Assembly: GCA_031404015.1 (NCBI GenBank)
Contig: JANNGT010000027.1
Coordinates: forward strand, 920-64,919
Direction: 5' to 3'
DNA from: Gammaproteobacteria bacterium
GTDB taxonomy: Bacteria; Pseudomonadota; Gammaproteobacteria; Steroidobacterales; Steroidobacteraceae
Length of the DNA: 64,000 bases
Of the stretch, positions 7,254 through 46,871 are shown piece by piece (position 1 is the first letter of the stretch; the number at the start of each line of letters is the position of its first letter). The notes beneath the pieces are model-generated. The model saw only the letters and a list, made by a program, of their open reading frames with translations, made no database searches and had not been told where the DNA came from. Position numbers and translations under genes: made by a program.

Positions 7254-7373
7254 TAGGCTTTTTTGGCCAATTGGACCCTTGCCACGGGCTTAACATAGAA
7301 TACGCGCCCCATGCCGGTCCAGCGCAGGCCCGGATCGGCTGATTTTGTTTCCTTCCAAAGGATCCCTACGACA

Positions 7374-7616
7374 ATGAGCAGTATTGAACAGCGAGTGAAG
7401 GCGATCGTCGCCGAGCAACTGGGCGTCAAGGAAGAGGAGGTCACCAACGAATCCTCCTTCGTCGACGACCTCGGTGCAGACTCGCTCGACACTGTGGAAC
7501 TCGTGATGGCGCTCGAAGAAGAGTTCGAGACCGAAATCCCGGACGAAGACGCCGAGAAGATCACGACCGTCCAGCAGGCAATCGACTACGTCACCGAGCG
7601 CCGCAGCCAGGCCTGA
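7374..7616 (+). CDS. acpP: Acyl carrier protein
   Basis: [18 protein letters not shown]...[20 protein letters not shown] with the phosphopantetheine Ser in DSLD. Confidence 0.98.
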
Positions 7617-7697
7617 GCTGCAGTGCCTCTTGCCGGACCGCCACGGAAGGCGGACCCGGCAGCAATGTTTCCGCCCACCTTTCCCGGGGGACCACGC

Positions 7698-8942
7698 TTG
7701 TCCAGGCGCAGAGTCGTCGTCACAGGTTTAGGCATCGTTTCCCCGCTCGGCAGCACGGTCGCGTCCGCCTGGGACGGTATCGTCAACGGCCGCAGCGGCG
7801 TAGCGACCATCACCAAGATGGACCTGAGCGCGTTTCCGGTGCGCATCGGCGGGCAGGCCAAGGACTTCGTCCCCGAGGACTACATGCAGCCCAAGGACGT
7901 GCGGAAGTTCGATCCGTTCGTGCCCTTCGGCGTCGCTGCGGCGACCCAGTCCATCAAGGACTCTGGCTTCGAGGTCAACGAATCCAACTGTGGCCGCATC
8001 GGTGTGGCCATGGGCGCCGGCATCGGGGGACTCTCGACCATCGAGGAAAACACCGCGAAATGGCTTGAGGCGAAAACGCCGCGAAAGATTTCGCCGTTCT
8101 TCATCCCGGGCAGCATCATCAATGCGGCCGCGGGGCAGATTTCGATTCACCACGGCCTGCGCGGTCCCAACCTGGCGCTGGTCACTGCGTGCACGACCTC
8201 GACGCATTCGATCGGCCTGGCCTGCCGCCTGATCCAGTACGGCGACGCGGACATCATGGTCGCGGGCGGCTCCGAAATGGCGTTCACGCCGCTCGGCGTC
8301 GGCAGCTTCTGCCAGGCGCGGGCGCTCTCGACGCGCAACGACGAACCCGAACGCGCCAGCCGGCCGTGGGACAAGGATCGCGACGGCTTCGTGATGGCTG
8401 AAGGCGGCGGCGCGGTCGTGCTCGAAGAGTACGAGCACGCCAAGGCGCGCGGCGCGCAGATCTACGCCGAACTCATCGGCTTCGGCATGAGTGGCGATGC
8501 GCATCACATCACTGCACCACCCGAGGACGGCGAAGGCGCGAAGCTCGCGATGTCCGCGGCCATCCGCGATGCGGCCATCAATAACGAGCAGGTCGACTAC
8601 ATCAATGCGCATGCCACCTCGACCGAGCTCGGCGACCGCGCCGAGACGATCGCGATCAAGCGCACGCTGGGTGACCACTCGCGCAACGTGGCCGTGAGTT
8701 CCACCAAGTCGATGACCGGTCACCTGCTGGGCGCCGCCGGCGTGGTCGAGGCGATCTTCTCGATCCTGGCGATCCGCGATGGCGTGCTGCCGCCCACGAT
8801 CAACCTCGAGAACCCCGACCCTGAGTGCGATCTCGATTTCGTTCCGGGCACCGCGCGCCAGGCGCCGGTACGCATCGCGCTGTCGAATTCGTTCGGGTTC
8901 GGCGGCACGAACGGCAGCCTGATCTTCCGCGCGCTCGGCTGA
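7698..8942 (+). CDS. fabF: 3-oxoacyl-ACP synthase II
   Basis: SRRRVVVTGLG..., ACTTSTHS, HATST and SNSFGFGGTN motifs. Likely TTG start at 7698, giving the canonical (M)SRRRVVVTG N-terminus. An alternative ATG lies at 7665. Confidence 0.93.
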   Translation: MSRRRVVVTGLGIVSPLGSTVASAWDGIVNGRSGVATITKMDLSAFPVRIGGQAKDFVPEDYMQPKDVRKFDPFVPFGVAAATQSIKDSGFEVNESNCGRIGVAMGAGIGGLSTIEENTAKWLEAKTPRKISPFFIPGSIINAAAGQISIHHGLRGPNLALVTACTTSTHSIGLACRLIQYGDADIMVAGGSEMAFTPLGVGSFCQARALSTRNDEPERASRPWDKDRDGFVMAEGGGAVVLEEYEHAKARGAQIYAELIGFGMSGDAHHITAPPEDGEGAKLAMSAAIRDAAINNEQVDYINAHATSTELGDRAETIAIKRTLGDHSRNVAVSSTKSMTGHLLGAAGVVEAIFSILAIRDGVLPPTINLENPDPECDLDFVPGTARQAPVRIALSNSFGFGGTNGSLIFRALG

Positions 8943-22089: not shown

Positions 22090-22316
22090 CGCGGTGCCGG
22101 GTGCCGCAACACCAGGTGTGATGAATCGGAGAGCTCGCTGCGCTGTGCAACACGCACTTGTTCACTGACTGCTCGGTTGACTCTCTGCGTGCGCAGCGAA
22201 CGGCAATGCGCTGCTCCTCCTGCCTGCATCATCCCGAGCGCTGACATCGGGTCCCTCCTGATTGAAGGTAGGTATGCGGCCAGCAGGCGCATTGCGCACA
22301 GAAGAGTTGGCGCGCA

Positions 22317-23891
22317 ATGTTTGACGCCCCACAACTGGACAGAAGCATGGAAGACGGTCGGCCGGAAGGTCGTCATACGGATCGACCGATGTGCGCTGGA
22401 ACTTCCTCACATACCAGTGAGGAGACGTTCCGGACCGTGGCGGAGTGGGCGCCCGCGAATCTTTTCATCGCGGATCTCGACGGTTTGAACACGTACGCCA
22501 ATCGGCGCCTCTACGAGTATACCGGCGCACCGCCAGGGGCCCTTCTGGGTCTGGGCTGGATGACTTATATGCACGCGGATGACACCGTGCGCGTGGAGGC
22601 CGCGTGGGCGCAGGCCCTCGCCTCGGCGGGCGCATACGAGATGGAATACCGGTTGCGCGGTGTCAATGGTCTGTATCGCTGGTTTCTGGTGCGCGGCAAC
22701 CGCTTCGATGGCGCCGACGGCCACACGCACGGATGGTGCGGAGCGGCTATCGATATTCATGATGCGCGACGTGCGAGCGACACGCTGCGGACCTCCAACG
22801 CGAGCAAGGACTCGTTTCTCGCGACGCTTGCGCACGAGCTGCGCAACCCGCTCGCACCGATCCGCAACGCAGCGCACGTGTTGCATACACCCCATGTCAG
22901 TGCCGATGCAGTGCAGGAATGCAGCGGCGTCATCACGCGCCAGGTTGCCGTCATGGCGCGACTGCTCGATGACCTTCTGGACGTTTCGCGCCTGACTCAA
23001 GGCAAGCTCCACCTGCAGCTCGAGCCGGTACAACTCTGGGAGGTGCTCGGTCTGGCGGTCGAAACGAGCCGCCCATTGATCGATGCTTGCGGTCACGAGC
23101 TGATCGTGCGCTTGCCGTCGGCGCCGTTGCGGATGAGCGCCGATCCTGTCCGCCTCGCCGAGGTCGTGTCAAACCTGCTGAACAATGCCGCAAAGTTCAC
23201 GCCGAGTGGCGGCCGCATCGAATTGTCGGCCGACGTGGATGCGGACGGCGTGTTCGTGCGCGTCGCCGACAATGGCGTGGGGCTGCAGTTCGGCTCCCTC
23301 GAACGCATCTTTGGCATGTTCACGCAGTCAGGGGAGGGGACCTCGCCGGGCGAGAGTGGCCTTGGCGTTGGACTCGCGTTGGCAAGAGCCATTGTCGAGC
23401 TCCATGGCGGCCACATCGAGGCACGAAGTGCGGGACTTGGGCAAGGCTCGGAGCTTGTGATGCGGCTGCCGACGAGTACACCACAGCCCCGCGCGGCTGC
23501 GCAGACACAACCGCAACCTGGGCGGGGAGTTCGCCGAGTGCTGCTCGTCGATGACAACGCCGACATCGTCGAGAGCCTCGCCATGCTGCTGGGTCTCGAA
23601 GGACACGACGTGCGCTGTGCCGGATCGGGCCTGCAGGCCCTGGCGATTGCGCGCGACTTCCAGCCGGAAGTCGTCGTACTCGACATCGGCATGCCCCAAA
23701 TGGACGGCTATGAGCTGGCACGCCGGTTACGGCTCGTGTGTGGACTCGAGGCAGCGAGGTTGATTGCCGTCACGGGTTGGGGAACCCTGGCTGACAAGGG
23801 GAAGTCATCAACGGCAGGGTTCGATCTTCATTTCACCAAGCCCGTAGATCCTGACCAACTGATAAAGGCCATCGCGTCCAAGCTCCATTGA
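22317..23891 (+). CDS. Hybrid sensor histidine kinase/response regulator with PAS domain
   Basis: PAS (YRWFLVRG), HisKA H-box FLATLAHELRNPL, HATPase N/G boxes (NLLNNAAKFT; GLGVGLALA) and a C-terminal receiver (VLLVDDN...LDIGMPQMDG...K). The exact start (22317 or a downstream ATG) is uncertain. Confidence 0.88.
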   Translation: MFDAPQLDRSMEDGRPEGRHTDRPMCAGTSSHTSEETFRTVAEWAPANLFIADLDGLNTYANRRLYEYTGAPPGALLGLGWMTYMHADDTVRVEAAWAQALASAGAYEMEYRLRGVNGLYRWFLVRGNRFDGADGHTHGWCGAAIDIHDARRASDTLRTSNASKDSFLATLAHELRNPLAPIRNAAHVLHTPHVSADAVQECSGVITRQVAVMARLLDDLLDVSRLTQGKLHLQLEPVQLWEVLGLAVETSRPLIDACGHELIVRLPSAPLRMSADPVRLAEVVSNLLNNAAKFTPSGGRIELSADVDADGVFVRVADNGVGLQFGSLERIFGMFTQSGEGTSPGESGLGVGLALARAIVELHGGHIEARSAGLGQGSELVMRLPTSTPQPRAAAQTQPQPGRGVRRVLLVDDNADIVESLAMLLGLEGHDVRCAGSGLQALAIARDFQPEVVVLDIGMPQMDGYELARRLRLVCGLEAARLIAVTGWGTLADKGKSSTAGFDLHFTKPVDPDQLIKAIASKLH

Positions 23892-28248: not shown

Positions 28249-28680
28249 TCAGCGCTCCTGCGCTCGTAACTCCGCCAACCGCTCGAGCAGTCGGCGCACG
28301 TGCCCACCCTCGATCATCGCGGCCCAATGCCCCTCGCTGAAGCGTTCGCCACGAACGCAGTACGTCAGCATCGTTTTGATTTCATCGAGACTCGCTCGCC
28401 GAACCCGCGGCTCATCGTCGAGCATGCGACCCGCCTCAACCGGCACGTAGTCGGCATCGTTCCAGCATTCCTTCGATGCCTCATCGAAGAACTCTTTGAC
28501 GACCTCCTCGTAAACGGGCCACGGCATGACGTACGCACCGTTGGCATTCTTCTCGCCTCCACCCCATCGCCGGATCGGAGCAAATCCTTCGATCGACAGC
28601 CGCGGCCGAAACGCGAGCAGCCGCCCGATCTCCGCCGCCGTCGGCGTCGTCGTCTTCCTGGGTCGCGACCCCCGCGTCAT
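28249..28680 (-). CDS. Hypothetical protein (DUF6508-like, tentative)
   Basis: 143-aa ORF with conserved-looking MPWPVYEEVVKEFF...YCVRGERFSEGHWAAMIEGG. The ATG overlaps the stop of the upstream zinc-ribbon ORF (ATGA). Confidence 0.55.
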   Translation of the reverse strand: MTRGSRPRKTTTPTAAEIGRLLAFRPRLSIEGFAPIRRWGGGEKNANGAYVMPWPVYEEVVKEFFDEASKECWNDADYVPVEAGRMLDDEPRVRRASLDEIKTMLTYCVRGERFSEGHWAAMIEGGHVRRLLERLAELRAQER

Positions 28681-30128: not shown

Positions 30129-31814
30129 TCAACGCCGCCGGTTGCGATAGTTGCGCTCCTCCGCTCGGGTTCTCTGCGTGGCGGCAAGACGTGTGTCGGC
30201 AACCCGCGTTGCGACCGTCTGCGCGCGACGGGAGCCCGCGATCGCCGCCAGGAAGGCCTCGCGATCGAGCATCCACAGTCGCACGCCGGTTTCCGCCGTG
30301 ACACTCGCCGTCCGTTGCACAGCACGCATCAAGGCGATCTCGCCGAACGTATCGCCCGGCCCGAGCGACGGTCGTGGCTGCCCGTCGACAGTGACGGCGA
30401 GCTGCCCGGAGTCGACGACATAAAAATGCTCGGCTTGATCACCCTGCCGGATCACCGGCTCGCCTGGATCGAACTCGACGGGCACGCAATCGCGCGCGAG
30501 TCGTTCGACGACCGGCACCGGCAGGTGCCCGAACATGGGCAGACGCAGCAACAGTATCAGCGATCTCGAGGGCGCCGGGGCCTCGGCGTCGATCGACTCC
30601 AGACTTCGCCAAGTCAACGCGGCCAGCAACGGCAGCATCAATCCCGCCACAAAGAACGCACCGCGTGACCCGGCCAGGATCACCATCAGGGGCACGATGG
30701 CGGCGCCGATGGCCATGGCCAGCAGCATCAGGCCCTCCTGCAGTCCGAACACGCGCGCGAGCACGTCATCGGCGATGGACCGTTGCAGCAGAGTCCGCGC
30801 CGCAACATCAAGAAAGCTCTTACCCGCACCGGCCATGGCAAACAGCAGCACGGCTGGGAGGAGATGGCTCGTCAGGCCGGCGAGCGCGAACGGCACGCCC
30901 GCGACCAGCAGCGATCCAGCCAGCGCCGCACCCAGCCGGCGGCGACCCGCGAGCAGGATCGATGCGCCCGCGCCAACCATGCCACCGAAACCGATGGCCG
31001 AGATGAGAACGCCCGGCCCTGCAGCGCCGAGCGAAAGAATCTCGAATGCCAGCACGACGGCCAGCAGCTCGGACATGCCCAACAGCAGGTACGAAATCCC
31101 GACGTAACTCAACAACAGGATCCCATGGGGCTGGGCGCGCAACTCGACCAGCGAGTCGGTCCAGTCCGACACACTGATGCGGGGACGCGGGTCCCGCGCC
31201 ACGTCGCCCTGCGGGCGCGCGGGCTGGCGGACGAGCAATGCCGCCAATAGTTGGCCGACCGCGAACACTGCGAAAATCTGCGCCGGGCCCGCTACGTGCA
31301 TGATCGCTGCGGCCACGGCGGGGCCAAGCAGCACGGCGATGCTCTCCACCATGGTCGACACGCTGTTCGCCGCCGTGAGCTGCACAGGTGTCGCAGCAAA
31401 GGCAGGCAGCGCCGCCAGGTACACGGGTCGAGTGAGGCTGATCGTTACCGCTACGAGCGCGGCCCCGACGAGGATCAACGGCAGGCCCGAATTCCCGGCG
31501 AAGAGCAGCACGGTCAGTGCCAACGTTGCCGACTGGACGCAGTAGATTCGGGGCAGCACTCGCTCGCGCGGGACCCGATCGCCCATCAGTGCGGCCAGCG
31601 GCGCCACCGCCGCTGCGGGTAGCAACTGGACCAGGGAAGCGAGGGCCGCCGCAGTGGTCCCACCCTGTTGGTACGCGTAGACGAGAATGGCCACCCAGAC
31701 GGCCCACTCCGCCGTATTGAACAGCAGATAGGCCAGCAGGGAACGGCGCAGTGCGCGCGCCGCCAGCACGGTGCGCAGCGCGCGCAGCGGCTCGTGTGCG
31801 TTAAAGGCAGGCAT
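30129..31814 (-). CDS. MFS transporter fused to a C-terminal cyclic-nucleotide-binding domain
   Basis: About 12 hydrophobic helices, then IRQGDQAEHFYVVDSG...FGEIALMRAVQRTASV. Start taken at the ATG at 31814 (MPAFNAHEP). Confidence 0.8.
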   Translation of the reverse strand: MPAFNAHEPLRALRTVLAARALRRSLLAYLLFNTAEWAVWVAILVYAYQQGGTTAAALASLVQLLPAAAVAPLAALMGDRVPRERVLPRIYCVQSATLALTVLLFAGNSGLPLILVGAALVAVTISLTRPVYLAALPAFAATPVQLTAANSVSTMVESIAVLLGPAVAAAIMHVAGPAQIFAVFAVGQLLAALLVRQPARPQGDVARDPRPRISVSDWTDSLVELRAQPHGILLLSYVGISYLLLGMSELLAVVLAFEILSLGAAGPGVLISAIGFGGMVGAGASILLAGRRRLGAALAGSLLVAGVPFALAGLTSHLLPAVLLFAMAGAGKSFLDVAARTLLQRSIADDVLARVFGLQEGLMLLAMAIGAAIVPLMVILAGSRGAFFVAGLMLPLLAALTWRSLESIDAEAPAPSRSLILLLRLPMFGHLPVPVVERLARDCVPVEFDPGEPVIRQGDQAEHFYVVDSGQLAVTVDGQPRPSLGPGDTFGEIALMRAVQRTASVTAETGVRLWMLDREAFLAAIAGSRRAQTVATRVADTRLAATQRTRAEERNYRNRRR

Positions 31815-32027
31815 GGTGTCGGCGCAATCTTGGTCGTTCCGCGTGACCCATTCACGATAAATCGATGCTGCATTGCAGCGCCGACCCGAGAGTGCATTGT
31901 CGCGACCCGCGTCGTCCAACTTTGCAGCTGCACTCCCGCGTTTATCCGAATTGCGATCTATTGCCGCAGCGGTCGTTCGTCAGCGAAGTCCAGGCCCCAT
32001 TCGCCAGCGGTGTGAGTCGCGCAGCGC

Positions 32028-32763: not shown

Positions 32764-33282
32764 ATGCGCACTGGAATCGCCGTAGCTTTTACAATCGGCT
32801 TCGTCACGTTCGCGGCCTCATCGCACGCGGCCGAGTCGACTCTGCCAGCGGTCGTCGCTACCCACTTGAAGGACGTCGCCGCGGAATGCGTGGAAGTCGG
32901 GGGCAAGGCACTCACTGACGCAGCGATTACGCGTGCAGACCTGACCGGTGACGGCAAGGAGGACTACGTTTTCGATGTCGGCTCGATCCAGTGCGACGGC
33001 GCTGCCAGCATCTATGGCGATCGCAGCAAGAAAGTGACGGTGTACGTCGGTGACGGCGCGGGAGGCGCCGTGGAGGCGTTCAGCGATATGTCGTACGGGA
33101 TGCGATTCGAAGGCAAGGGGATCGCAACGAAGGTCTGGTTGACGGTGATGGGCGAGGAATGCGGCAAGAAGCGGGCCGTCGACTTCGCCAGTGAGAAATT
33201 CTGCGACCGCTCCCTCGTATGGCAAGGCGCAACAAAAAAATTCGAATTCGCGCCGATATCGACCGTCAAGATGATCGAGTAG
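32764..33282 (+). CDS. Secreted hypothetical protein
   Basis: Signal peptide MRTGIAVAFTIGFVTFAASSHA, then about 150 aa with four Cys. No family recognised. Confidence 0.55.
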   Translation: MRTGIAVAFTIGFVTFAASSHAAESTLPAVVATHLKDVAAECVEVGGKALTDAAITRADLTGDGKEDYVFDVGSIQCDGAASIYGDRSKKVTVYVGDGAGGAVEAFSDMSYGMRFEGKGIATKVWLTVMGEECGKKRAVDFASEKFCDRSLVWQGATKKFEFAPISTVKMIE

Positions 33283-36127
33283 TAGATCTCTTCTCGCGCG
33301 TGGGTGAAGCCAGCCAACGCACGGCGACGCCGTCCAGTTCCTGCTTCTCGACGAGCGCATCCGCAATGCGAACCAGCACCAGGCGGCGGGCGCGCAGGAA
33401 CGTCACGGCATTGCGATAGGAGTTGCGCAGCAGCGCATCGACCTGCCTGGCCTGCGCCGGCGTGGGTGCCGACGTCCAATGCAGGTTCCCGTCGGAACCG
33501 AAGCCGGACGTGCAGACGACGCTGGTGGCGACCCGCGTGGCGACGGCGAGATCGCTGGTCGGGCCGCCCCCGCAATTCAGGCTGATGTCGTCCTTGCCGT
33601 AGACCACCTCCTCCGCCGCGCGACCCGCAAGGATCGTGCGCATGCGCTCCAGTACCGCCACCCGGGTCATGACGCCGCTTTCGGGCGGCATGGAGGCAGT
33701 GAAGCCGAGGGAGCCGTCCATGCGCGGGATGATCGAAACGAAAGTGAGTTCGGGCGCACCATCCGTGCCGCCGAGCGCCGAAAGCGCGTGGCCTGCCTCA
33801 TGCACGGCGACGCGACGCATGTCTTCGGCGGTTAGGCGTTGCGCGGTGTCCGCTCGACGCGGCCGGCGCGTCACCTCCGCGAGCAGGTCCGCCTGGCTGA
33901 TCTTGCGGCCGTCCTTGCGCGCACGCCGCGCCGCGCCGCGCACGAAGAACTCGACGTCGGCGCCGGTGAGGCCATACGCAAGCTGCGCAAGTCCATTTAC
34001 TCGCACCTCGCGGGCTACGTTGTTCAGCTTGCGGTGCGGCTGCAGGTAGTGCGTAAAGATCTGTTCGAGCGCTGCGACGTTGGGACGCGGCAACTGGATC
34101 ACCTGGTCCAGTCGGCCGGCACGGCGCAGTGCCGGATCAATTTTCTCGAGGTAGTTGGTCGCACCGATCACGATGACGGGCTCGTTCGCGTCGAGCCCCT
34201 GGATCTGCTCGAGCAGCGCATTCACCACCTCGGTCTGGTAAACACCGTTGGAGCCGGAGAACAATTCCCGGTTGCCAATGCTGTCGATCTCGTCGATGAA
34301 GACGATCGCGGGCGCATAGCGCCGGGCCTCTGCAAACGTCTCGCGCATCGCCCGGAGGTGGAGATCGAGCCCGCCCGACGATTGCCACTGCGTCGCGCTG
34401 GCGTGGATGAATTTCACGTCGCACGCATGCGCGATGGCACGTGCCAGGGTCGTCTTGCCGGTGCCCGGCGCGCCGACCAGCAACAGGCCGCGGTCCACCG
34501 CCTGCCAGGGGATGCGCCCTGCGCGCGCCGCGGCGATGTCGGCGATGAGATCTTCCGCCACCTGGCGCGCTTCACCAAGACCGTGCAGGTCCTTGAGCGC
34601 CAGCGAGTCGGCGGCCGACACCTGGGCGATGCGCGCCTGGCAGCGCTCCCGCAGGTAATCCAGCGACTCCGACGCATTCAGCTTGAGCCGCAGTGGCGCG
34701 TGAAAGTCCGAGTGCACCACGTAACGCACCCAATCCGCACCGCCGGCCCGCCAACGTGGCGGGGGCTGTGTGCCGATCACCTGGCGGAAAATCTCGGCGA
34801 ACAGCCGCGTATCGATGCGCGGCAACGTCAGGATCAGGTCCGTGGCGCGACGAAGGGGCTCGGGCACGTCCGCGCGTCGCGCGCACCCGATGAACACTGG
34901 TGGTGCACCGACCGCCAGCTGGTGCGACGTCCACTCCGCGTCCCACAGGGCTCGGTAAGCATGAAACGAAATCACGTGCAGTGCGGGCGCGGGCACTCGG
35001 GTATCGACCCAGCACCGTGTGTCGTCTCCCGTCACGGCGGCAGCGTGTCGGGTGTGTTCTTCGGGAAACCCGGCACGTGTCGGATCGAGCAGGCCCACCA
35101 CGATGTCTTCCACGAAGGCGATATCCGATTCGATCACAATGATCGGCGCGGACTCCTGCACAAAACGCGCGAGCTGGCCGATCGGGCCGGCGGGATGCGA
35201 CTGTGTGTTGAAGCGCTGCAGCAGACGATGGCCAAGGGCCCCGCGAATCGCGTCGACCAGCAGGACGGAAACGAACGCTTCCGTGACCGACAGATCGCTA
35301 CCGGCCTTGGCTTCGGTGTCCGTTTCGGCGAGCCGCGCCCTCGCCTCGCGCGCAATCTCGATGATGTCTTTCTTCGCGGCAGGCGGAACGACCTCGTCGT
35401 CTTCCGGTGGCGGCTGGAGGGTCGGGCACTTCGGCGTGGTAACCACGCCGAGCGCAGCCAAGGGCGTGTCGTCGACCATTTCGATCTCGCCATCGGGCGT
35501 GACCAGGAAGGTCGACGCATACAGCACGTCCGCATACGCCACCGTCGCTTGAACGCGGAACCTGCCGTCCGTCGCCGCAATTTCCTGCTGCAGAGGTGTC
35601 CAGAGCTGCCGCAGCATCGCGATCTGACCCGCAGCGGCCGCGTCGGCGCCTGGCGCCACCTCGAGCCCGATTTCCTCCGGTGCTTCGATCACCACGAACG
35701 CGCCATGCTCGCCACGGATCGCAAAGAGAAAGAATCGCACGTAGTCGAGTAGCGTAACGTCGGTCAGCGCCAGCGATTCCAAGGCATTGACGAGATGCAC
35801 TGGCGTCGACTGGCCGTTGAGCATGTGCGTGCCGGCCGGGCCGTGCAGAAGCAACGCCCGATCGACGCCGGCCACGCCCAGCATCCGGACATCGACGAGA
35901 TCGTGATTCGAATAAAACGGCAGCCGCGCAAACCGAGCATGCAACAGGCTAGCGCTGGCAAACGCAGTTGGCCGGGCCATGGCCAGTTCCTTCAGGACGT
36001 CCTCAGCGACGTCGGCCTGGCACGGTTCCCAGGAGATGCTCGGCCCCAACGTGCGTTCCAACACCGCATCTCCGCTCAGGTTGTTGGTCCCGACAGTAGC
36101 GGTTGGCAGGGCGGCGCAGCAAGACAT
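33266..36127 (-). CDS. Soluble FtsH-like AAA+ ATPase / M41 zinc metalloprotease with large N-terminal region of unknown function
   Basis: Walker A LLVGAPGTGKTTLA, Walker B IVFIDEIDS, GATNYLEKIDPALRRAGRLD, the zinc motif VHEAGHAL, GRAAEE and SDLAVAT. No TM helices seen. Start is the ATG at 36127 (alternative 35980). The ORF upstream of that, to 36661, looks non-coding. Confidence 0.8.
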   Translation of the reverse strand: MSCCAALPTATVGTNNLSGDAVLERTLGPSISWEPCQADVAEDVLKELAMARPTAFASASLLHARFARLPFYSNHDLVDVRMLGVAGVDRALLLHGPAGTHMLNGQSTPVHLVNALESLALTDVTLLDYVRFFLFAIRGEHGAFVVIEAPEEIGLEVAPGADAAAAGQIAMLRQLWTPLQQEIAATDGRFRVQATVAYADVLYASTFLVTPDGEIEMVDDTPLAALGVVTTPKCPTLQPPPEDDEVVPPAAKKDIIEIAREARARLAETDTEAKAGSDLSVTEAFVSVLLVDAIRGALGHRLLQRFNTQSHPAGPIGQLARFVQESAPIIVIESDIAFVEDIVVGLLDPTRAGFPEEHTRHAAAVTGDDTRCWVDTRVPAPALHVISFHAYRALWDAEWTSHQLAVGAPPVFIGCARRADVPEPLRRATDLILTLPRIDTRLFAEIFRQVIGTQPPPRWRAGGADWVRYVVHSDFHAPLRLKLNASESLDYLRERCQARIAQVSAADSLALKDLHGLGEARQVAEDLIADIAAARAGRIPWQAVDRGLLLVGAPGTGKTTLARAIAHACDVKFIHASATQWQSSGGLDLHLRAMRETFAEARRYAPAIVFIDEIDSIGNRELFSGSNGVYQTEVVNALLEQIQGLDANEPVIVIGATNYLEKIDPALRRAGRLDQVIQLPRPNVAALEQIFTHYLQPHRKLNNVAREVRVNGLAQLAYGLTGADVEFFVRGAARRARKDGRKISQADLLAEVTRRPRRADTAQRLTAEDMRRVAVHEAGHALSALGGTDGAPELTFVSIIPRMDGSLGFTASMPPESGVMTRVAVLERMRTILAGRAAEEVVYGKDDISLNCGGGPTSDLAVATRVATSVVCTSGFGSDGNLHWTSAPTPAQARQVDALLRNSYRNAVTFLRARRLVLVRIADALVEKQELDGVAVRWLASPTREKRSTTRSS

Positions 36128-36217: not shown

Positions 36218-36766
36218 ATGATTGGCATGGAAGTCGTGCCGCTGCTCTTTTTCACGATCGGGGCAGCCTGCAGCTGGCTCGTGGCCTGGCCCGGCGGACT
36301 GGCGCTGAAGGCGCTGGCACGCGCTCAGCGGTGGGACGGCGAACCCACTTTCAAGGCAGTTCGTCGGGCGGTCTTCTGGGCGTTGATGGCACACCTTGCC
36401 GTCGCGGGCGGCCTGGACGCGCTCGCCGGTACCCGGCACTCGCTGATGGCCGTCCTGCCTGTGCTCAACAAAGCGCAATGCGCTCCGTATTGCTTCTCTT
36501 GGACGCCGGCGGAAGAAATGAAATCCGGCATTCGGACCGTCGATGACTACTACCGGACCGTCGTCGGCTCGGGCAGTGCGGCGTGGCTCCGGTACCTGGC
36601 TTGGCAAGTACCCGGCATCGTCGCGGCATTCCTGGCGCTCGTCTCGTTGAACCCCTGGCAAGCCGCGGGTACGCGTAGCCTGCTCGGCCTGGGAGGGGTC
36701 ACCCTGCTGTCCGTCGGTCTCGGGCTCGCCTTTGCAATGACGTTCGTGGTGGGCGCCATGATCTAG
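36218..36766 (+). CDS. Hypothetical polytopic membrane protein
   Basis: 182 aa with 4-5 hydrophobic helices. Divergent from the FtsH-like gene. Confidence 0.55.
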   Translation: MIGMEVVPLLFFTIGAACSWLVAWPGGLALKALARAQRWDGEPTFKAVRRAVFWALMAHLAVAGGLDALAGTRHSLMAVLPVLNKAQCAPYCFSWTPAEEMKSGIRTVDDYYRTVVGSGSAAWLRYLAWQVPGIVAAFLALVSLNPWQAAGTRSLLGLGGVTLLSVGLGLAFAMTFVVGAMI

Positions 36767-36800: not shown

Positions 36801-37346
36801 TCAGCGTGCGATAAAAGTCGTTGCGCCCCGCACGTCGCCGGGCCTGAGCTCCCAAGTCACACCTTGGATCGACTTCGAACTGCGCACCGTCGTGTAGCGA
36901 CGGTTGTGCCAATCGAGATCGAAGATGCGCTGCCAGCTTGTCGCAATCCGGCGCCGGTCCGGGCGTTCCTCAAACCTTCTTTCATCGGCCAGCGACGTCG
37001 GCAGATACCAGCCGTTCAGCACGTAATGCCATAGTTCGAAGTCAGAACGCAGCAGTCGCACGTCGTCCAGTTCGAGTTCGATACGTACGCCGCGGGTGCC
37101 CGCGGGCAGGTGACCTCGAGCCCTCAGATCGGGCTTTGACCGCTCCGCTCCCCGCCACTGGCACCAGACCCAGATGGGCGCCTGCCCGGCGTTTGCAGGC
37201 GGCCCCAGGCGAGCGCGCATCACGTCGGACATCCATTGGTACGCGCGAGCCCAATCGTGCGGGGCGTTGCTCGCGCGTGCGCGCCAGGTCTGCCCGGATA
37301 GAAGCGCCGCCAGCACGTCGGGAGTCTGGATCGTCCATGCACGCAT
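36801..37346 (-). CDS. DUF3841 family protein (tentative)
   Basis: MRAWTIQTPDVLAALLSG...PIWVWCQW...ELELDDVRLLRSDFELWHYVLNGWYL resembles DUF3841. ATG at 37346 preferred over GTG at 37379. Confidence 0.55.
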   Translation of the reverse strand: MRAWTIQTPDVLAALLSGQTWRARASNAPHDWARAYQWMSDVMRARLGPPANAGQAPIWVWCQWRGAERSKPDLRARGHLPAGTRGVRIELELDDVRLLRSDFELWHYVLNGWYLPTSLADERRFEERPDRRRIATSWQRIFDLDWHNRRYTTVRSSKSIQGVTWELRPGDVRGATTFIAR

Positions 37347-37459
37347 CGTTCTTTGGACCGGCACACCGAGGGTGCTCACAAGCTAGCACGCAGCCTGTGG
37401 CGCTGTCGTTTCGCTGCCTGTTCTGAGATGCTGCCGATCGGCCAGGCAAGAGGCGGGAC

Positions 37460-40294
37460 ATGGTCGACTTACAGCACCGCTCGACGAGACGCATCAAGCC
37501 GCTGCAAGCCCTGCTCCTGGTCGGGATGACGCTGGCATGGCTAGCGCCTGTGCAGGCCGCGACCTGGATCGAACAGGCGCAGGCCGACCTGACGTGCACG
37601 GGACAGGCTGATGCATCGGAGCGGCTCGCCCTCGATGCCCCATGGCTGCCAACGCCCGTCGACGCGAAGAATGCCACCGCCTATTTTCGCGGCAAACCCC
37701 AGAACGCGCGGCAGGCAAAATTCCGTCACCTCACGCTGCTCGCCGCCGTGGGTTGGTGGGCCGATCTCGTCAACGACCAGACGCTGCGACAGGACGTTTA
37801 CTTGACGATTGGCTCGATGGCGGATCGCTATGCGACCGCGAGCGATGGCTTGCTGTTCACGCAGATCGCGCGCTGTGCGCGCACTCACATGATCAGCACG
37901 CAGGTCGAACTCGAACGGCCACAGGCAGCCGCAGAACTGGCGCGGCAGCTGGCGATGCTCTATCCGTCCGCGGCCCCTGCCCACTCTGTTGAGGACTGGC
38001 CACTGATTCTTGCGTTGCGTGAGCTGCGACTGGAGCCCGACGCCCGAGCAGGCATTGAAGAACTCACGGCTCGCTCGACTCGTTACGGCGAAAGCGCGGT
38101 CGGTGCGGGGCAAGCGGATCGTGCGAGTCGATGGCTGGGGGCTGCGGCTGCCGGAACTCTGGCGCTTGGGGCAGCAGACCGCGCCCAGCAGCTCGCGCTG
38201 CGATCAATAGCCGTGACCGGCAAGTCAAGCGATGCGAATGCGGTGTGGCGGGCGTTTCCAACCGTCTACGATGCTGCGGCGAAGCTCGGTGGCGCGGTCG
38301 ACGTCCCCACCCTTGGCTCAATGCTGTCGTCGCCGACACCGCAGGGATCGCTTAACGATCACCAGGCTGTGTTCGATTCGATTTTGCGTTTGTCGAAAGT
38401 CGCCGAAGCGAAGCAGCAGTTCGACGACATGGCCCGCCTGCAGCAGGTCGCTGCCCACGAACTCGCGCAGCAACGCGGCCTTGAGCGCTACCCGATGCCT
38501 TTCTACCGTTACGCGCTCGAACAATTGGCGCTCGGGCGCGACGCGGACCTCGGCACTCTCTCTCGGCGCGATCCTGCCTTTGCGTCGCGCACGCTCGCGA
38601 TCTACACGGGACTGTACGACAAGCTGCTGGCACAGGCTCAGACGCAATTCGTTGCGGATGCACGCGAGCAATTGTTCTTCCAGTACAAGATCGACAACAG
38701 CCTGCATGCGCTTGCCGAACTTTCGTCGGCGATGCCTCGCTCGGCGCCAGAGATCACAGACACTGCATTTCGGCTGGCGCAGCTGCGGTCTTACGGTCGG
38801 CTGACGCTCGCTACCCTGGCGGGGGAACTATCGCGCACCCGCCTCGATCCGCAAACCAGATTCAGCGTCGAACGCTTTTTCTCGCTGGCGACGCAGACCT
38901 CCGTCTGGTTGCGCAAGTTGCTGGGCAAGCTGCAGGTAGCGGCGGAAACTCCCCTGCCCGATGGCGAGAAACTTTGGACGGCCTTCTTCACGCTCGACGT
39001 CTTCTACAACGAAACGAGTCGCGAGTTCGCACGCTACACAGAGTTTGTCCGGCAGCAAGCGCCAGCCATCGCAGAGCTCGCCACACCGCATCCGCTGGCG
39101 CTTCGCGACTTCCAGCGCCGGCTGCGTCCCGGCGAGGCGATCGTCGCCACGCTCGTGACGCCGCTCGACCTTTACGTCTGGGCGGTTACGCCGGACAAGG
39201 CCGTCATGACCCGGCAGCGTGTGACCGAGCGCGAGCTGCGTGCAAAAATTCAGCGTCTGCGTGCCGGGCTTACGCCGGGCAGCGGTGGCGCGCTGCCGCC
39301 TTTCGATGCGGCGGCGGCTCACGAACTGTACCGACTGGTGTTTGAGCCGGTCGCGAAGACACTGCAGGGCGTCACGGAAGTCAGCTGGTACGGCCACGGG
39401 CCGCTCGGCGCCGTGCCGCCGGCCGTGCTCGTCAGTGCACCGCCGACCAAGCCGCTGCTGCGCACGCCGGCCGAGTTCAAACAGACCGCATTCCTCGTCG
39501 ACCGCTATGCGTTTGCAGCGCTCGCGGACCTGTCGCTGTTCGCCTGGCATCGCGACAAGTCACAGCCGCCACGCAGCCAGCAACGTTTCCTTGGGGTGGG
39601 TGCGCCATTGCTGACGTCCGCTGAGGTCGCGGGCGGTCCGCGTTCTCGGTCGTATGAACTTGCGGGGGGTCTCGACGGCAAGGCGCTGTCCGCATTGCCC
39701 AAGCTCGCCGAAGCGATCGACGAAATGCGCGGGCTCGCCGGCATCGTCGGTGAAGCCAATGCGACGCTGTGGCTGGGTCCCGATGCGGACGAGCAACGGT
39801 TCGTCGGCGACGCGCTGCGTGGATACGGACTCATCGCGCTGGCCACGCACGGCTTCCTGCCCGGCGAAGTGCGGGACGTGCCCGAGCCTTCGCTGATGCT
39901 GGCCCTGGCGCCCGATCGCCAGGATCGATTCGACGGACTGCTGACGAGCCGTGAGATCGCGTTGCTGCAACTCGACGCGCCGCTGGTGATCCTGTCGGCC
40001 TGCAACACGGCCAGTGCGGACGGAAGGCCGCGCGGCGAGACGTTTACTGGTCTGACGCAGGCATTTTTCAATGCCGGGGCGCGTTCACTGATGGTAAGCC
40101 ACTGGCCCGTCATGTCGGGCGCGGCGGTGCAACTATCGGTGAGCACAATTGAGCGCTCGCAAACGCCAAACGCAACGCTGTCGAAGAGCCTGCAGCAGGC
40201 GATGCAGGCCGCTCGCAAGGCAGGCGCGGCCAGCGCGATCGAGGCCCACCCGTCGTTCTGGGGGCCGTTCGTAATCGTGGGCGACGGTCGCTAG
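37460..40294 (+). CDS. Secreted CHAT-domain (caspase-like) protease with long helical-repeat N-terminal region
   Basis: Sec signal LLLVGMTLAWLAPVQA. C-terminal CHAT domain with His (LIALATHGF) and Cys (LVILSACNTA) dyad and the SLMVSHWPV tail motif. 944 aa. Confidence 0.85.
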   Translation: MVDLQHRSTRRIKPLQALLLVGMTLAWLAPVQAATWIEQAQADLTCTGQADASERLALDAPWLPTPVDAKNATAYFRGKPQNARQAKFRHLTLLAAVGWWADLVNDQTLRQDVYLTIGSMADRYATASDGLLFTQIARCARTHMISTQVELERPQAAAELARQLAMLYPSAAPAHSVEDWPLILALRELRLEPDARAGIEELTARSTRYGESAVGAGQADRASRWLGAAAAGTLALGAADRAQQLALRSIAVTGKSSDANAVWRAFPTVYDAAAKLGGAVDVPTLGSMLSSPTPQGSLNDHQAVFDSILRLSKVAEAKQQFDDMARLQQVAAHELAQQRGLERYPMPFYRYALEQLALGRDADLGTLSRRDPAFASRTLAIYTGLYDKLLAQAQTQFVADAREQLFFQYKIDNSLHALAELSSAMPRSAPEITDTAFRLAQLRSYGRLTLATLAGELSRTRLDPQTRFSVERFFSLATQTSVWLRKLLGKLQVAAETPLPDGEKLWTAFFTLDVFYNETSREFARYTEFVRQQAPAIAELATPHPLALRDFQRRLRPGEAIVATLVTPLDLYVWAVTPDKAVMTRQRVTERELRAKIQRLRAGLTPGSGGALPPFDAAAAHELYRLVFEPVAKTLQGVTEVSWYGHGPLGAVPPAVLVSAPPTKPLLRTPAEFKQTAFLVDRYAFAALADLSLFAWHRDKSQPPRSQQRFLGVGAPLLTSAEVAGGPRSRSYELAGGLDGKALSALPKLAEAIDEMRGLAGIVGEANATLWLGPDADEQRFVGDALRGYGLIALATHGFLPGEVRDVPEPSLMLALAPDRQDRFDGLLTSREIALLQLDAPLVILSACNTASADGRPRGETFTGLTQAFFNAGARSLMVSHWPVMSGAAVQLSVSTIERSQTPNATLSKSLQQAMQAARKAGAASAIEAHPSFWGPFVIVGDGR

Positions 40295-41193
40295 CGGGGC
40301 GACGGGCCCCAGAGCACCCAGTCGCCGATCGAACCGGCGAGTGGATCGCCAGCACGTATCAGCGGCCGCAAGCGTTCGAAACTCTCCAGCTTCCAGCGGC
40401 CGTCATCGAGACGCGCGAGCCACACGGCCTGAGCGGTGACCCCGAGACTGGTCGAGTCGGTCGCGAGTTCCGACGGCACCACGGGACCGGCCGCAACAGC
40501 CTCGAGCGTGCCTGCATAGCCGCGGTTGGCTGCGTCGGTGACCGTGATGGTGTACTGGCCAGGGTCGAGGGACACGTCGTCGAGGCGCACTTGCCAACCT
40601 TCGATCGATTCGCGGTAGACGAGACTGTCGCGCCCTGACAGCACGCGCACTTCGAAAGGCGGACAGCCACCGCGCCAGGCGAGCGGCAGGTCGCGCTGGC
40701 CCGAGACGATGCGGGCACCCGCCACCAGGATCGGGACGGCAATCGCCGGCACGGCGCTGCCGTCCTTGCCGCAAGACTCGCCGCCGCGCGAGGCAGCCGT
40801 GCCGTCGAGTCGATACTCGTCATCCAACAGGATCGGGAGCAAGGACTGGAAGATTACAGCCAACTTGCCAAGCGGCTGCGCATCGGGGATGACGAAAGCG
40901 CCGGGCCCCTTGAGGTTGAGTGTCTCGTTGCTCGCGAGCTGGACGGTCACCGCAGCGCCCGCCGGCAACGCCAGACGATCGCCAGCCATGACGACGGTGC
41001 CGATTTGCACCTGGACCTTCTCGCCCTTTGGCAATCGCGTCAGCGTATGTCGCGCCGCCGCAGGCCGGTAGTTGCCGATCACGCCGACGCCGGCATCGCT
41101 GGCAGCCTCTGCGCCGTGCAGGAGCAGTGACGGGAGTCCCGCGGCAAGCAGGGCGGCCAAGGCCAAGGTGCAGCGGTATCGCTTGAGTCCCAC
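40291..41193 (-). CDS. Secreted FecR-domain protein with extra C-terminal domain
   Basis: Signal peptide LALAALLAAGLPSLLLHGAEA. FecR-like VQIGTVVMAGDRLALPAGAAVTVQLASNETLNLKGPGAF. GTG at 41193 lies 1 nt after the CHASE2 stop, with AAGGAG upstream. Confidence 0.7.
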   Translation of the reverse strand: MGLKRYRCTLALAALLAAGLPSLLLHGAEAASDAGVGVIGNYRPAAARHTLTRLPKGEKVQVQIGTVVMAGDRLALPAGAAVTVQLASNETLNLKGPGAFVIPDAQPLGKLAVIFQSLLPILLDDEYRLDGTAASRGGESCGKDGSAVPAIAVPILVAGARIVSGQRDLPLAWRGGCPPFEVRVLSGRDSLVYRESIEGWQVRLDDVSLDPGQYTITVTDAANRGYAGTLEAVAAGPVVPSELATDSTSLGVTAQAVWLARLDDGRWKLESFERLRPLIRAGDPLAGSIGDWVLWGPSPR

Positions 41194-41194
41194 G

Positions 41195-42634
41195 TCAGTC
41201 TCCTTGCCCACCAGGTGATTTGTGCTCGCGGCGCCAGCCCGCACCTAGCGCACGCCACCAGCCGGCGGGACCAGCGGGAAATCGTGGGCGCCGCTCGTTC
41301 AGTTCCTCGACGGACTTGCCCGCCGTTGCCAATGCCTTGTACGCAATCGACAGCAAGATAGCCGCTTCGAGCGCGTCGAACACGAGCAGGCTGTCGAACA
41401 GCGCAAGCAGCACGGCGACGATCATCAGAACGCCGGTCGTGATCGCAATGACTGCGCCGAACCCGCGCAGCCACCACTCCACGAGCACGAACAGCGCGAA
41501 CAGCAGCAGCGCGACGACACGATAGGCCAGGTTCGCCGACCAACCGTGTCTCTCGGCCTGCAGCGGTGTGTAACGCACGGTGTTGGCCAGCAACTCGACG
41601 CCCGGCAGCACTCCGCTCGGTGTCATCCAGAAATCGCCGGAGCTCGAATGGGTCGCGCCGATGAAGACGACGCGGTCGCGGAACAAGCGCGCGTCGTCTC
41701 GGGCGATCTCCGGATCTAGCAGCAGCGTCGCCGATATAGCTTGCGCTTCCGTTCGCGGAGCGGCCCGCGCCTCGCCGGTCAGACGCGGCCCGATCAACAG
41801 ACGTTGCGCATTGCCATCGGGCGATTCCGCGACCCCGCACGACGACTGTGACGCAGCGGGCGGCACGACGCGGTCCAGTCCGGGCAATGGGGTCGCCAAA
41901 TTGGCTGCCAGGCTCATAGCCATGGAGGGCAGCCACTGCAACCCGCCTGCCGAACAGATTGGCAGCCAGCGTTGCCAGGTGCGTACCGCCCCGCCGCCGC
42001 CCGTTTCGAAACTGGCGTGCGCCCACGCAAGGTGCGCGTTCTTTGCGACTACCGCATCGAACGGGCTTGCGGTTGCACGTCGGGTGCCGTCCTGCGCCGT
42101 CTCGACACGCTTCGGCAGGACGATCAGCACCGGTCCCGCGTATAGGGCAAGAAACTCATGCAGCGCGAGCGAGCCTGCGTCGGCGCTGGCAGCCGACAGC
42201 TCGCCGCCAGACAAGTCGATGTCCACAACGACAGCGCTGGGGGCCGCCTGCGTTACCACTTGCAGCAACCGCACCAATTGATCGCGGGGCGTGATCGGCG
42301 GCGCACCCCAGGCCCGGTGGGTCTCGGCGTCGATGTCGACAATGGTCACCGGCACGGTCCGGTCCGACTCGAACCAGCCCCGCGAGAGCGCGCGCAGCGC
42401 GGTGTCGGGATTGAAGGGAGCGTCAGCCAGCCAATCGGCCACGCGGTTGTGTTGCACGGTGCCCAGCAAAGCGAAAGTGCCAGCGATCAACGCTGCCAGC
42501 GTGGTGGCCCGGATGAAGTCACTGCGCGGGTCCGTGTCTATGCCCAGCGTGACTCGCACGCGACGCACGAGCCGCGACATAAGGGTCGCTGATCTTTCTT
42601 TTGCGCGGCGCTTACCCCGTGTCTCGACGTTCAT
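41195..42634 (-). CDS. Stand-alone CHASE2 sensor-domain membrane protein without recognisable output domain
   Basis: N-terminal TM, then VTIVDIDAETH...PRDQLVRLL...VVVDIDL...VVFIGATHSSSGDFWMTPSGVLPGVELLANTV is a CHASE2 pattern. Three or four C-terminal TM helices and a short tail follow. Confidence 0.8.
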   Translation of the reverse strand: MNVETRGKRRAKERSATLMSRLVRRVRVTLGIDTDPRSDFIRATTLAALIAGTFALLGTVQHNRVADWLADAPFNPDTALRALSRGWFESDRTVPVTIVDIDAETHRAWGAPPITPRDQLVRLLQVVTQAAPSAVVVDIDLSGGELSAASADAGSLALHEFLALYAGPVLIVLPKRVETAQDGTRRATASPFDAVVAKNAHLAWAHASFETGGGGAVRTWQRWLPICSAGGLQWLPSMAMSLAANLATPLPGLDRVVPPAASQSSCGVAESPDGNAQRLLIGPRLTGEARAAPRTEAQAISATLLLDPEIARDDARLFRDRVVFIGATHSSSGDFWMTPSGVLPGVELLANTVRYTPLQAERHGWSANLAYRVVALLLFALFVLVEWWLRGFGAVIAITTGVLMIVAVLLALFDSLLVFDALEAAILLSIAYKALATAGKSVEELNERRPRFPAGPAGWWRALGAGWRREHKSPGGQGD

Positions 42635-46336: not shown

Positions 46337-46864
46337 ATGTCAACCTCCACGACAGAGTTCGAGCGTCTCGCAGTGCCGCTCGAGCGCGACGTTTTCCTCC
46401 GCAGTTTAATCCGCGAACTGTCCGGCACGCTCCAGGACGTGATCGGTCTCGACGAAGCGGCCGGCTTTATCAGCATCGTCGGGCAGCGCATTGGTGAGAG
46501 CATCAACGAGTCGTACAAGCTGGCGCTGAACACCAGTGTCCTTGACAGACACCAGGTCGCCAACGTCCTGGTCGACCTGAAGCGTCGCATCCAGGGCAGC
46601 TTCTACATCATCGAAGAAACGGACGAGAAGATCGTGTTCGGCAACCGGAATTGCCCATTTGCAGAAAAGGTGATCGGGCGCCCCTCCATGTGCATGATGA
46701 CTTCAAACGTGTTCGGGGTCATCGCGGCGGAGAATCTGGGTCACGCCAAGGTCGTTCTCAACGAGACGATTGCCCAAGGCTCGGCGTCGTGCAGGGTTAC
46801 GCTTTACCTGAAAGACTCGGCGGAGTCGGCCTCAATGGCTGGCCGCGAATACTTTCAGAGCTGA
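46337..46864 (+). CDS. Methanogen-output-domain-1 (MOD1)-like / V4R-like small protein
   Basis: [35 protein letters not shown]...[18 protein letters not shown]...[33 protein letters not shown] matches the MOD1 family as remembered. Confidence 0.65.
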
Positions 46865-46871
46865 GCGACCT

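Follow-up and report, generated by a model that had tools for sequence, protein, structure and literature searches.

In most accounts, FtsH is the AAA+ protease that bacteria keep anchored in the membrane. Here we describe a gene family that carries the FtsH engine in a membrane-free form, in which an AAA+ ring that appears blind to nucleotide takes the place of the membrane anchor and may act as a scaffold. The same family reveals, at its N-terminus, a domain of about 200 residues (N1) that has no Pfam model and no structural relative, and that is common in NLR-like STAND NTPases. The member analysed occupies positions 33266 to 36061, on the minus strand, of a 64,000-nucleotide stretch of DNA (the window) from a gammaproteobacterium of the family Steroidobacteraceae (assembly GCA_031404015.1, contig JANNGT010000027.1, positions 920 to 64,919). 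The most interesting aspect of this gene is that it links a new STAND-associated domain with a complete FtsH engine, and the function proposed below is inferred from the sequence.

Among described architectures, here compared by description only, the nearest is found in the vWA-MoxR "FtsH ternary systems" (Kaur, Burroughs, Iyer & Aravind 2020, eLife 9:e52696; PMC7159879), in their FtsH component. This component has two FtsH-type AAA+ domains, the N-terminal of which is inactive, having lost its P-loop as well as its Walker B motif; some of the proteins carry an extra N-terminal domain, which was said to be unique to them (PMC7159879). The systems were defined by adjacent MoxR and vWA genes and assigned to the conflict systems of multicellular bacteria, and the FtsH component was treated as a chaperone, with no mention of an M41 peptidase (PMC7159879). 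The window protein shows the same tandem of an inactive AAA+ domain (D1) followed by an active one (D2), but it differs in having an intact M41 peptidase and an N1 domain that is widespread in STAND NTPases. Neither a MoxR-type (AAA_3/AAA_5) gene nor a vWA-domain gene was found among the 20 window open reading frames (ORFs) scanned or in the Pfam-annotated neighbourhoods of 12 relatives, and no gene of either kind adjoined the protease gene in the window or at 15 related loci inspected.

Type-II AAA+ unfoldases (p97/Cdc48/VAT, NSF and Pex1/6) resemble the window protein in combining an N-domain with two stacked AAA rings, one of which is weakly active or inactive and mainly scaffolding. N1 takes the place that the substrate or adaptor N-domains have in p97, ClpA and NSF. 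The window protein is distinguished from the type-II unfoldases by a D1 that has lost its nucleotide-binding motifs altogether, by a peptidase fused in cis, and by the absence of detectable structural similarity between N1 and their double-psi barrel N-domains. The features of the gene and its product are as follows (residue numbers refer to the 931-residue frame starting at TTG 36061).

33266 to 36061, minus strand: complete gene for a soluble FtsH-like protein of 931 residues (ORF; start from orthologue alignment and upstream in-frame stops)
35417 to 36061, minus strand: N1, residues 1-215, two tandem modules of a helix and a four-stranded antiparallel sheet (AlphaFold2 model, profile search)
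35297 to 35416, minus strand: linker rich in Pro, Glu and Ala, plus a helix, residues 216-255, poorly conserved (low pLDDT; alignment columns variable in length and sequence)
34592 to 35296, minus strand: N2, predicted degenerate AAA+ domain, residues 256-490, with a large alpha/beta subdomain and a helical lid (AlphaFold2 model, Foldseek)
35105 to 35143, minus strand: pseudo-P-loop of N2, IIVIESDIAFVED, residues 307-319 (strand-loop-helix position in the model; invariant columns in the family alignment)
33857 to 34591, minus strand: classical AAA domain with lid, predicted to be active, residues 491-735 (PF00004; PDB alignments with FtsH and with VAT/p97 D2)
34451 to 34474, minus strand: Walker A, GAPGTGKT, residues 530-537 (four residues invariant in the family)
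34364 to 34396, minus strand: pore-loop-1 region, ATQWQSSGGLD, non-canonical, residues 556-566 (alignment with four canonical FtsH proteins; family invariants)
34280 to 34303, minus strand: Walker B, VFIDEIDS, residues 587-594 (motif scan, family alignment)
34106 to 34162, minus strand: second region of homology, ATNYLEKIDPALRRAGRLD, with the sensor-1 Asn and both arginine fingers, residues 634-652
33269 to 33835, minus strand: Peptidase_M41 domain, residues 743-931 (PF01434; aligns with the FtsH and Yme1 protease domains)
33788 to 33802, minus strand: zinc-binding motif HEAGH, residues 754-758 (E755 and H758 invariant, H754 at least 90% conserved)
33536 to 33556, minus strand: SDLAVAT, residues 836-842, with D837 at the position of the third zinc ligand (D837 invariant)

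A preliminary description, made from the sequence alone, had recognised a minus-strand ORF ending at 33266, which proved to be a real and intact gene, but had placed its start wrongly at ATG 36127. The N-termini of the orthologues read M-(E/D)(R/K)T(L/F)GP..W..C, which corresponds to the window sequence from TTG 36061, and GGAG is located 8 nt upstream of this codon. The codon at this position is ATG in the orthologues at loci L007-L009 and GTG in L006 and L015, with in-frame stops shortly upstream in L007, L009 and L015, and ATG 36127 is not kept in the L006 orthologue, although the two proteins are 91% identical. We therefore take the gene as 33266-36061 (931 aa; stop codon at 33266-33268) and not as 33266-36127. 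The start fixed by the orthologues and the upstream stops also rule out a longer N-terminus with hidden transmembrane helices. A frameshift artefact that fused two genes, which the preliminary description had named as a possible flaw, was ruled out as well: the architecture is continuous in five species genomes, some 20 full-length sequences belonging to further clusters (at 50% identity) can be aligned over the whole protein, and the homologues that do contain frameshifts are the split or garbled ones (P0006, P0011, P0014/P0017 and P0015). These, together with L003 and L004, come from long metagenomic contigs in which the frameshifts are probably long-read assembly errors, with the result that protein databases understate the size of the family and overstate its fragmentation.

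The C-terminal region of about 430 residues can be aligned over its full extent with solved structures of FtsH and Yme1, and the best PDB scores of its AAA part were to VAT and p97 D2. A Pfam scan detected AAA (PF00004, E 2.7e-34) and Peptidase_M41 (PF01434, E 2.3e-22; 80.3 bits against a cut-off of 29.9), both above the gathering score, as the preliminary description had anticipated, and each of the motifs quoted there was located (those listed above, and GRAAEE at residues 813-818). In a 28-sequence family alignment, which includes members with as little as 32% overall identity to the window protein, each catalytic position is either unchanged or at least 90% conserved. These positions comprise G530, G533, G535 and K536 of Walker A, D590 and E591 of Walker B, the sensor-1 residue N636, the arginine fingers R647 and R650, and the zinc site H754, E755, H758 and D837, the last of which aligns with the Asp of "NDL/GDI..AT" in canonical FtsH. 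A careful alignment thus left intact the Walker and zinc-ligand residues whose loss would have spoken against the assignment. In these respects, one classical AAA domain followed by Peptidase_M41 with Walker A and B, sensor-1, arginine fingers, HExxH and an Asp as third ligand, the protein is like canonical FtsH (TIGR01241; E. coli HflB, T. maritima 2CE7 and yeast Yme1 6AZ0).

In other respects the protein departs from canonical FtsH. The two N-terminal transmembrane helices flanking a periplasmic domain were not found; in their place are 500 soluble residues, consisting of N1, the linker and the dead AAA+ domain. A Kyte-Doolittle scan revealed no transmembrane-like segment in the window protein or in 27 relatives, and each hydrophobic 19-mer contains charged residues; the most hydrophobic one in the window protein (KD 1.91) contains four acidic residues and is located in the beta1-alpha1 region of N2. 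The Pfam domains and the absence of transmembrane segments together bear out the earlier reading of a soluble FtsH-type AAA+/M41 protein without a membrane anchor. The NCBIfam FtsH equivalog TIGR01241 matches only the C-terminal 340 residues, at 213.1 bits against a cut-off of 600, and PRK10733 scores 141.6 bits against a cut-off of 1008. In a neighbour-joining tree of 397 columns, the family, an alphaproteobacterial variant and the degenerate paralogue L001b (both described below) form a clade apart from four canonical FtsH proteins. Identity between the family and canonical FtsH is 30%, compared with 53% among the four canonical proteins, which come from distant lineages. By its sequence, therefore, the window protein is built like FtsH yet is not an FtsH equivalog, since the anchor, the equivalog score and the pore loop all fail. 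A search of open-access full text for soluble or cytosolic FtsH returned nothing relevant.

The pore loop qualifies the earlier description of an apparently complete FtsH-type engine, which holds for the AAA and M41 catalytic motifs but had missed a non-canonical pore loop 1. When the window protein was aligned with the four canonical FtsH proteins, the M-F-V-G of FtsH fell on G-G-L-D, and throughout the family the canonical aromatic-hydrophobic-Gly loop gives way to G-(G/x)-L-D. The Phe of pore loop 1 is needed for proteolysis by FtsH in E. coli. A tryptophan that is invariant in the family, W559, is located five residues upstream of the canonical position and may stand in for the pore-loop aromatic. 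It is conceivable that the protein is a segregase or remodeller rather than a processive protease, remodelling or holding a partner and cleaving it at a specific site or not at all. The family-wide replacement of the loop is what this explanation would lead one to expect, and the paralogue L001b would fit with heteromeric, regulatory assemblies; nevertheless, HExxH and the Asp ligand do not vary within the family, which speaks for peptidase activity having been kept, and W559 may supply the pore aromatic, so that we consider the explanation highly improbable.

L001b is encoded at 5443-7921 (minus strand) of locus L001 and is a degenerate AAA+M41 protein of 666 aa from the same clade. It adjoins the homologue P0004 on that contig, reads "IDDVD" at Walker B and lacks the sensor-1 Asn, while HEAGH and the family Trp are kept. 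Its position beside a family member suggests a heteromeric or regulated assembly in that organism. L001b also adjoins a TY-Chap1 (PF22551) chaperone-like gene, and N1 was accordingly considered as a TY-chaperone relative; this candidate was rejected, as there was no Pfam hit at E<=1 and no match to the type III secretion chaperone fold.

No Pfam family was detected in the first ~500 residues of the window protein, even at E<=1. The second half of this region had been described as a degenerate AAA-type module without a Walker A motif, and structure prediction bore this out. An AlphaFold model of residues 250-516, built from a 26-sequence alignment, reached a pLDDT of 89.5 and a pTM of 0.82 (an earlier model from 14 sequences was poor, with a pLDDT of ~45 over N2), and all 50 of its 50 best Foldseek matches in the PDB were AAA+ ATPases, with probabilities of 0.84-1.0. 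These matches, which include RuvB, RFC subunits, proteasomal Rpt, ClpC1, Trip13 and ORC/Cdc6, were modest in quality (E 1e-3 to 1e-2, TM scores 0.30-0.45). Comparison of N2 with the protein's own active AAA domain by hhalign gave a weak match (E 0.047 over 48 columns), and a word-indexed search with an N2 profile gave 9 hits, almost none of them new. Between strand 1 and helix 1 of the model, where GxxxxGKT would be expected, the pseudo-P-loop has the pattern E-S-x5-E without Gly-Lys-Thr; E311 and E318 are invariant and S312 is nearly so. The family alignments show no Walker B acid pair in N2, whose Walker B strand reads LHVISFHAYR and whose sensor-1 strand reads VFIGCARR; a PEPLRR stretch that resembles an arginine-finger region is retained. 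According to the model, N2 is a divergent AAA+ domain with a lid, in which the nucleotide-binding motifs have been lost.

The first 200 residues had been said to match nothing recognisable. This holds for Pfam and for known folds, but it does not hold for sequence databases, in which N1 emerges as a discrete mobile domain common to STAND NTPases. An AlphaFold model from 14 sequences gave a pLDDT of 85-90 over residues ~10-220 and displayed a tandem alpha+beta arrangement of two similar modules, so that N1 is predicted with high confidence to fold independently. No Pfam family covers N1 in any of 45 scanned proteins from the profile hits, and a search of PDB chain sequences with the N-terminal profile gave 0 hits at E<=10. 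Foldseek with the first model of N1 and N2 together provided no convincing match (best E 0.036 against the PDB and 0.006 against BFVD, TM scores ~0.1-0.4), the weak matches being to monellin/cystatin-like proteins, a PUR repeat and MucB. A contig scan found no N1 relatives in viral contigs, and no description of N1 was found in the open-access full text of Aravind-group papers on STAND conflict systems or of a paper on diversity-generating retroelements.

The N-terminal (N1+N2) profile, searched exhaustively with HMMER against 1.84 billion cluster representatives, matched 2344 proteins at E<=1e-3. Among the hits listed, all except the full-length family and its fragments match N1 only (the first ~200 profile positions), at E values down to 1e-140. 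The proteins concerned differ widely: P0024 is TIR-NB-ARC-TPR followed by three N1 copies, P0095 and P0096 are TIR-NB-ARC-TPR with a C-terminal N1, P0051 and P0065 are nSTAND1-ankyrin followed by N1 copies (including nSTAND1-Ank-N1x3), P0088 and P0091 are WD40-N1, P0078 is N1-AAA_16-TPR and P0074 is N1-TPR. In 29 N1 proteins scanned together, Pfam detected nSTAND1 in 7, AAA_16 in 5, TPR in 8, ankyrin in 5 and TIR in 2. Among the proteins retrieved, 104 have one N1 copy, 25 have two, 8 have three and 2 have four; N1 stands at the N-terminus in 56 (about half of these being the protease family), at the C-terminus in 18 and in the interior in 13. A non-catalytic module is thus shared with nSTAND1, NB-ARC and AAA_16 proteins that carry TPR, Ank or WD40 repeats, and P0040 (1518 aa) even joins an NPHP3_N-type STAND NTPase to a complete N1-N2-AAA-M41 unit. 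The window protein resembles the STAND NTPases of conflict systems (nSTAND1, NB-ARC and AAA_16-TPR; Avs-like NLR relatives) in N1 and through this one fusion, but it has no STAND NTPase domain and no repeat sensor of its own. None of the N1-bearing STAND proteins matched a named system in PADLOC.

The conserved positions of N1 are mainly hydrophobic or aromatic (Y107, 99%; F49, F110, F111 and F122, each >90%), the polar ones are moderately conserved (N92, 83%; E126, 77%; R109, 76%; H89, 68%), and there is no invariant set of catalytic-looking residues. For these reasons N1 looks like a binding module and not an enzyme. A binding partner of N1 would inform both the protease and a large set of uncharacterised STAND proteins.

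As a whole, this information leads us to favour, tentatively and with confidence a little short of even, a soluble, target-specific, ATP-dependent zinc protease in which N1 selects the target, probably in a conflict- or immunity-type setting. The chain would run from the N1 recognition domain through a flexible linker to the catalytically dead AAA+ domain N2, a single active classical AAA domain and the M41 peptidase. By analogy with FtsH, Yme1 and p97 the protein would be expected to form a hexamer, scaffolded by a dead N2 ring that would replace the membrane anchor of FtsH in this role. The one active ring would hydrolyse ATP and feed polypeptide into the M41 chamber, and six N1 domains atop the hexamer would decide what is engaged. 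Such a protease would be dedicated to one protein target, cellular or foreign, rather than to general quality control, and would act in the same setting as the N1-bearing STAND proteins, that is, in conflict or immunity-type signalling. Direct recognition of a specific protein is favoured because STAND NTPases also carry N1 at their sensor end, where it often forms arrays. If the protein is a target-specific degrader, it may represent a compact, soluble and possibly programmable unfoldase-protease; if the immunity reading is true, its part would be the direct destruction of a foreign protein that it recognises, or else the degradation of host proteins after recruitment through N1-N1 contact.

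Several observations weigh against this proposal. A search of the 64-kb window and of the sequence up to 10 kb from the orthologues revealed no second N1 copy and no N1-bearing STAND gene, and the alphaproteobacterial relatives lack N1 altogether. The neighbourhoods are variable and often housekeeping-like, the wider window does not have the look of a defence island, and PADLOC (2.0) recognises no known defence system in the protein, matching only its AAA domain (IetA, TRIP13 and mad8; residues 513-765 of the 953-aa ORF from ATG 36127). Pore loop 1 has no aromatic-hydrophobic-Gly at the canonical position, and processive threading is accordingly not guaranteed. A role in a conflict system is plausible, if unproven. 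The preliminary description had named a quality-control, toxin-processing or defence protease as possible roles; the sharing of N1 with STAND NTPases gives the defence idea its first concrete, albeit indirect, support. A wider claim, that N1 is an undescribed sensor or adaptor domain of NLR-like immunity and that this is the first case of a complete, ATP-dependent and self-compartmentalised protease, an FtsH engine released from the membrane by a dead AAA+ ring, serving as an effector or regulator arm of STAND-type signalling, is possible but, in our estimation, unlikely.

The distribution of N1 also bears on a different arrangement, in which N1 is a homotypic adaptor on the principle of effector-associated domains: the protease would be called in and switched on by an activated N1-bearing STAND NTPase from another part of the genome, and would then degrade cellular proteins in an abortive or dormancy response. 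N1 occupies the N-terminal effector or adaptor position of several AAA_16-TPR STAND proteins (P0074 and P0078), many short N1-only proteins exist, and the STAND-N1-N2-AAA-M41 fusion P0040 resembles a Rosetta-stone link. Fusions of adaptor domains to AAA+ chaperones have been described in STAND-type conflict systems (PMC8195603), and the gene that overlaps the 3' end of the orthologue at locus L072 encodes a 1650-aa protein with a weak N1-like domain. The last of these is, however, a single weak hit (19 bits). Moreover, two to four N1 copies at the C-terminal sensor end of STAND proteins with an N-terminal TIR effector would be atypical of adaptors, N1 (~200 aa, alpha+beta) is unlike the small helical effector-associated domains, and neither the window gene nor its orthologues have a gene for an N1 partner nearby. 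We regard recruitment through an adaptor, the main alternative, as rather unlikely.

The L072 gene (9588-14540) is the only adjacent gene in which an N1-type domain was seen. Its product contains pentapeptide repeats, and the N1-like domain at residues 120-288 keeps the hallmark motifs LD..IH..N, Y.RFF and PF. STAND genes adjoin family members at loci L067 and L071, but these themselves lack N1; apart from them and the P0040 fusion, no STAND NTPase domain was found in the relatives, and none was found in the window protein or the window genes scanned.

The protease family is rare and uncharacterised, and all its known members come from uncultured bacteria. Full-length orthologues were present in 5 of 185,579 species genomes (one genome per species), all five of them metagenome-assembled genomes (MAGs) of Gamma-, Beta- or unclassified Proteobacteria, with identities to the window protein of 91% (L006), 73% (L007), 71% (L015), 68% (L009) and 67% (L008). 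When the N-terminal 488 residues were run in a word-indexed search against 5.8 billion proteins, only 19 sequences were recovered; every one came from a metagenome or a MAG (Polyangiales and Steroidobacteraceae), several were frameshifted fragments, and N1 was greatly under-reported. Among the 150 best HMMER hits of the N-terminal profile there were about 20 full-length relatives of 900-980 aa. Ten clusters that were looked up contained 1-10 sequences each and carried no taxon label, the sole name being "AAA+ superfamily predicted ATPase".

In the species-genome scan, six alphaproteobacterial MAGs shared residues 399-917 at 44-47% identity and had a different N-terminus. In this sister form (L010-L014 and L062; for example, L010 8666-11665) the similarity begins at the end of the dead AAA+ domain, and the N-terminal ~400 residues are unrelated and without N1. 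It follows that at least two different N-terminal modules have been joined to the soluble engine.

This distribution is relevant to the possibility that the protein is a general soluble quality-control paralogue, a back-up to FtsH and Lon for misfolded cytosolic proteins, with N1 and N2 serving for assembly only. The intact AAA and M41 catalytic motifs, the often metabolic neighbourhoods (fatty-acid oxidation, amino-acid genes and catalase) and a codon composition of the protease gene that resembles the rest of the window all accord with such a role. The extreme rarity of the family (the 5 species genomes and 19 word-indexed hits given above) and its patchy distribution do not, since housekeeping proteases are not so sporadic, and neither do the sharing of N1 specifically with STAND NTPases and the non-canonical pore loop. 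A general quality-control role is, in our judgement, quite improbable.

The gene arrangement in the window was as the preliminary description had stated. The protease gene is monocistronic, convergent with and overlapping by 17 nt a gene for a 172-aa protein with a Sec signal (32764-33282), and divergent from a gene for a 182-aa membrane protein (36218-36766, plus strand). Neither of these two neighbours contains a Pfam family, and both are kept only in the closest relative, L006. Upstream, on the far side of the membrane-protein gene, is a block that recurs at other loci:

36801 to 42634, both strands: recurrent block of DUF3841, CHAT, secreted 317-aa and CHASE2 genes (Pfam), facultatively linked to the protease gene
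36801 to 37379, minus strand: DUF3841 gene (Pfam)
37460 to 40294, plus strand: CHAT (caspase-like) protease with a signal peptide (Pfam)
40291 to 41244, minus strand: secreted 317-aa protein without a Pfam family
41195 to 42634, minus strand: CHASE2 membrane protein without a recognisable output domain (Pfam)

The membrane-protein ORF at 36218-36766 (plus strand), which lies between the DUF3841 and protease genes on the opposite strand, exists only in the window and in L006, whereas in L008 the DUF3841 and protease genes are co-directional and ~90 bp apart. This suggests that the ORF is a lineage-specific insertion.

The CHAT, 317-aa and CHASE2 genes (37460-42634) are conserved as a three-gene unit together with DUF3841 in L006, L008 and L015, so that the DUF3841 gene at 36801, unlike the two nearer neighbours, does recur. 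The four-gene block adjoins the orthologue in the window, L006 and L008; in L015 it flanks the gene from the opposite side, and in L002 a CHAT gene is adjacent to and divergent from the orthologue. The CHASE2/CHAT/DUF3841 block thus recurs in five loci, and the genes beyond it are not common to them. A linkage that survives rearrangement in this manner suggests a functional tie, in which the protease would act on a system made up of the periplasmic CHAT protein, the CHASE2 sensor and DUF3841, one of whose components it would process, activate or remove. However, the block is absent from L007, L009, L001, L003-5, L067 and L069-L072, where the neighbouring genes are as varied as those for fatty-acid oxidation and those for two-component systems. 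In addition, the CHAT and 317-aa proteins have signal peptides whereas the protease is cytoplasmic, and the five linked loci may represent a single lineage of related gammaproteobacterial MAGs. Partnership with the CHASE2/CHAT module therefore appears improbable.

The wider window contains genes for an MFS transporter, a glutathione peroxidase, hybrid histidine kinases, dehydrogenases and an amidohydrolase. The location of the protease gene in an accessory patch, as the preliminary description had suggested, was not evident: the genes are of ordinary metabolic and regulatory kinds, the base composition is even throughout, and no mobile-element domain was detected in 20 flanking ORFs scanned. 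The gene at 30129-31919 (minus strand) encodes an MFS_1 transporter with a C-terminal cNMP_binding domain, possibly, to judge from these domains, a cNMP-gated transporter. A small DUF6508 gene of unknown function (28249-28680, minus strand) and the DUF3841 gene (36801-37379, minus strand) flank the region. Hybrid PAS histidine kinase/receiver genes are located at 22272-23891 (plus strand) and 46812-48854 (plus strand), and the latter has ahead of it a MetOD1 (methanogen output domain 1) gene, an unusual feature for a genome of proteobacterial type.

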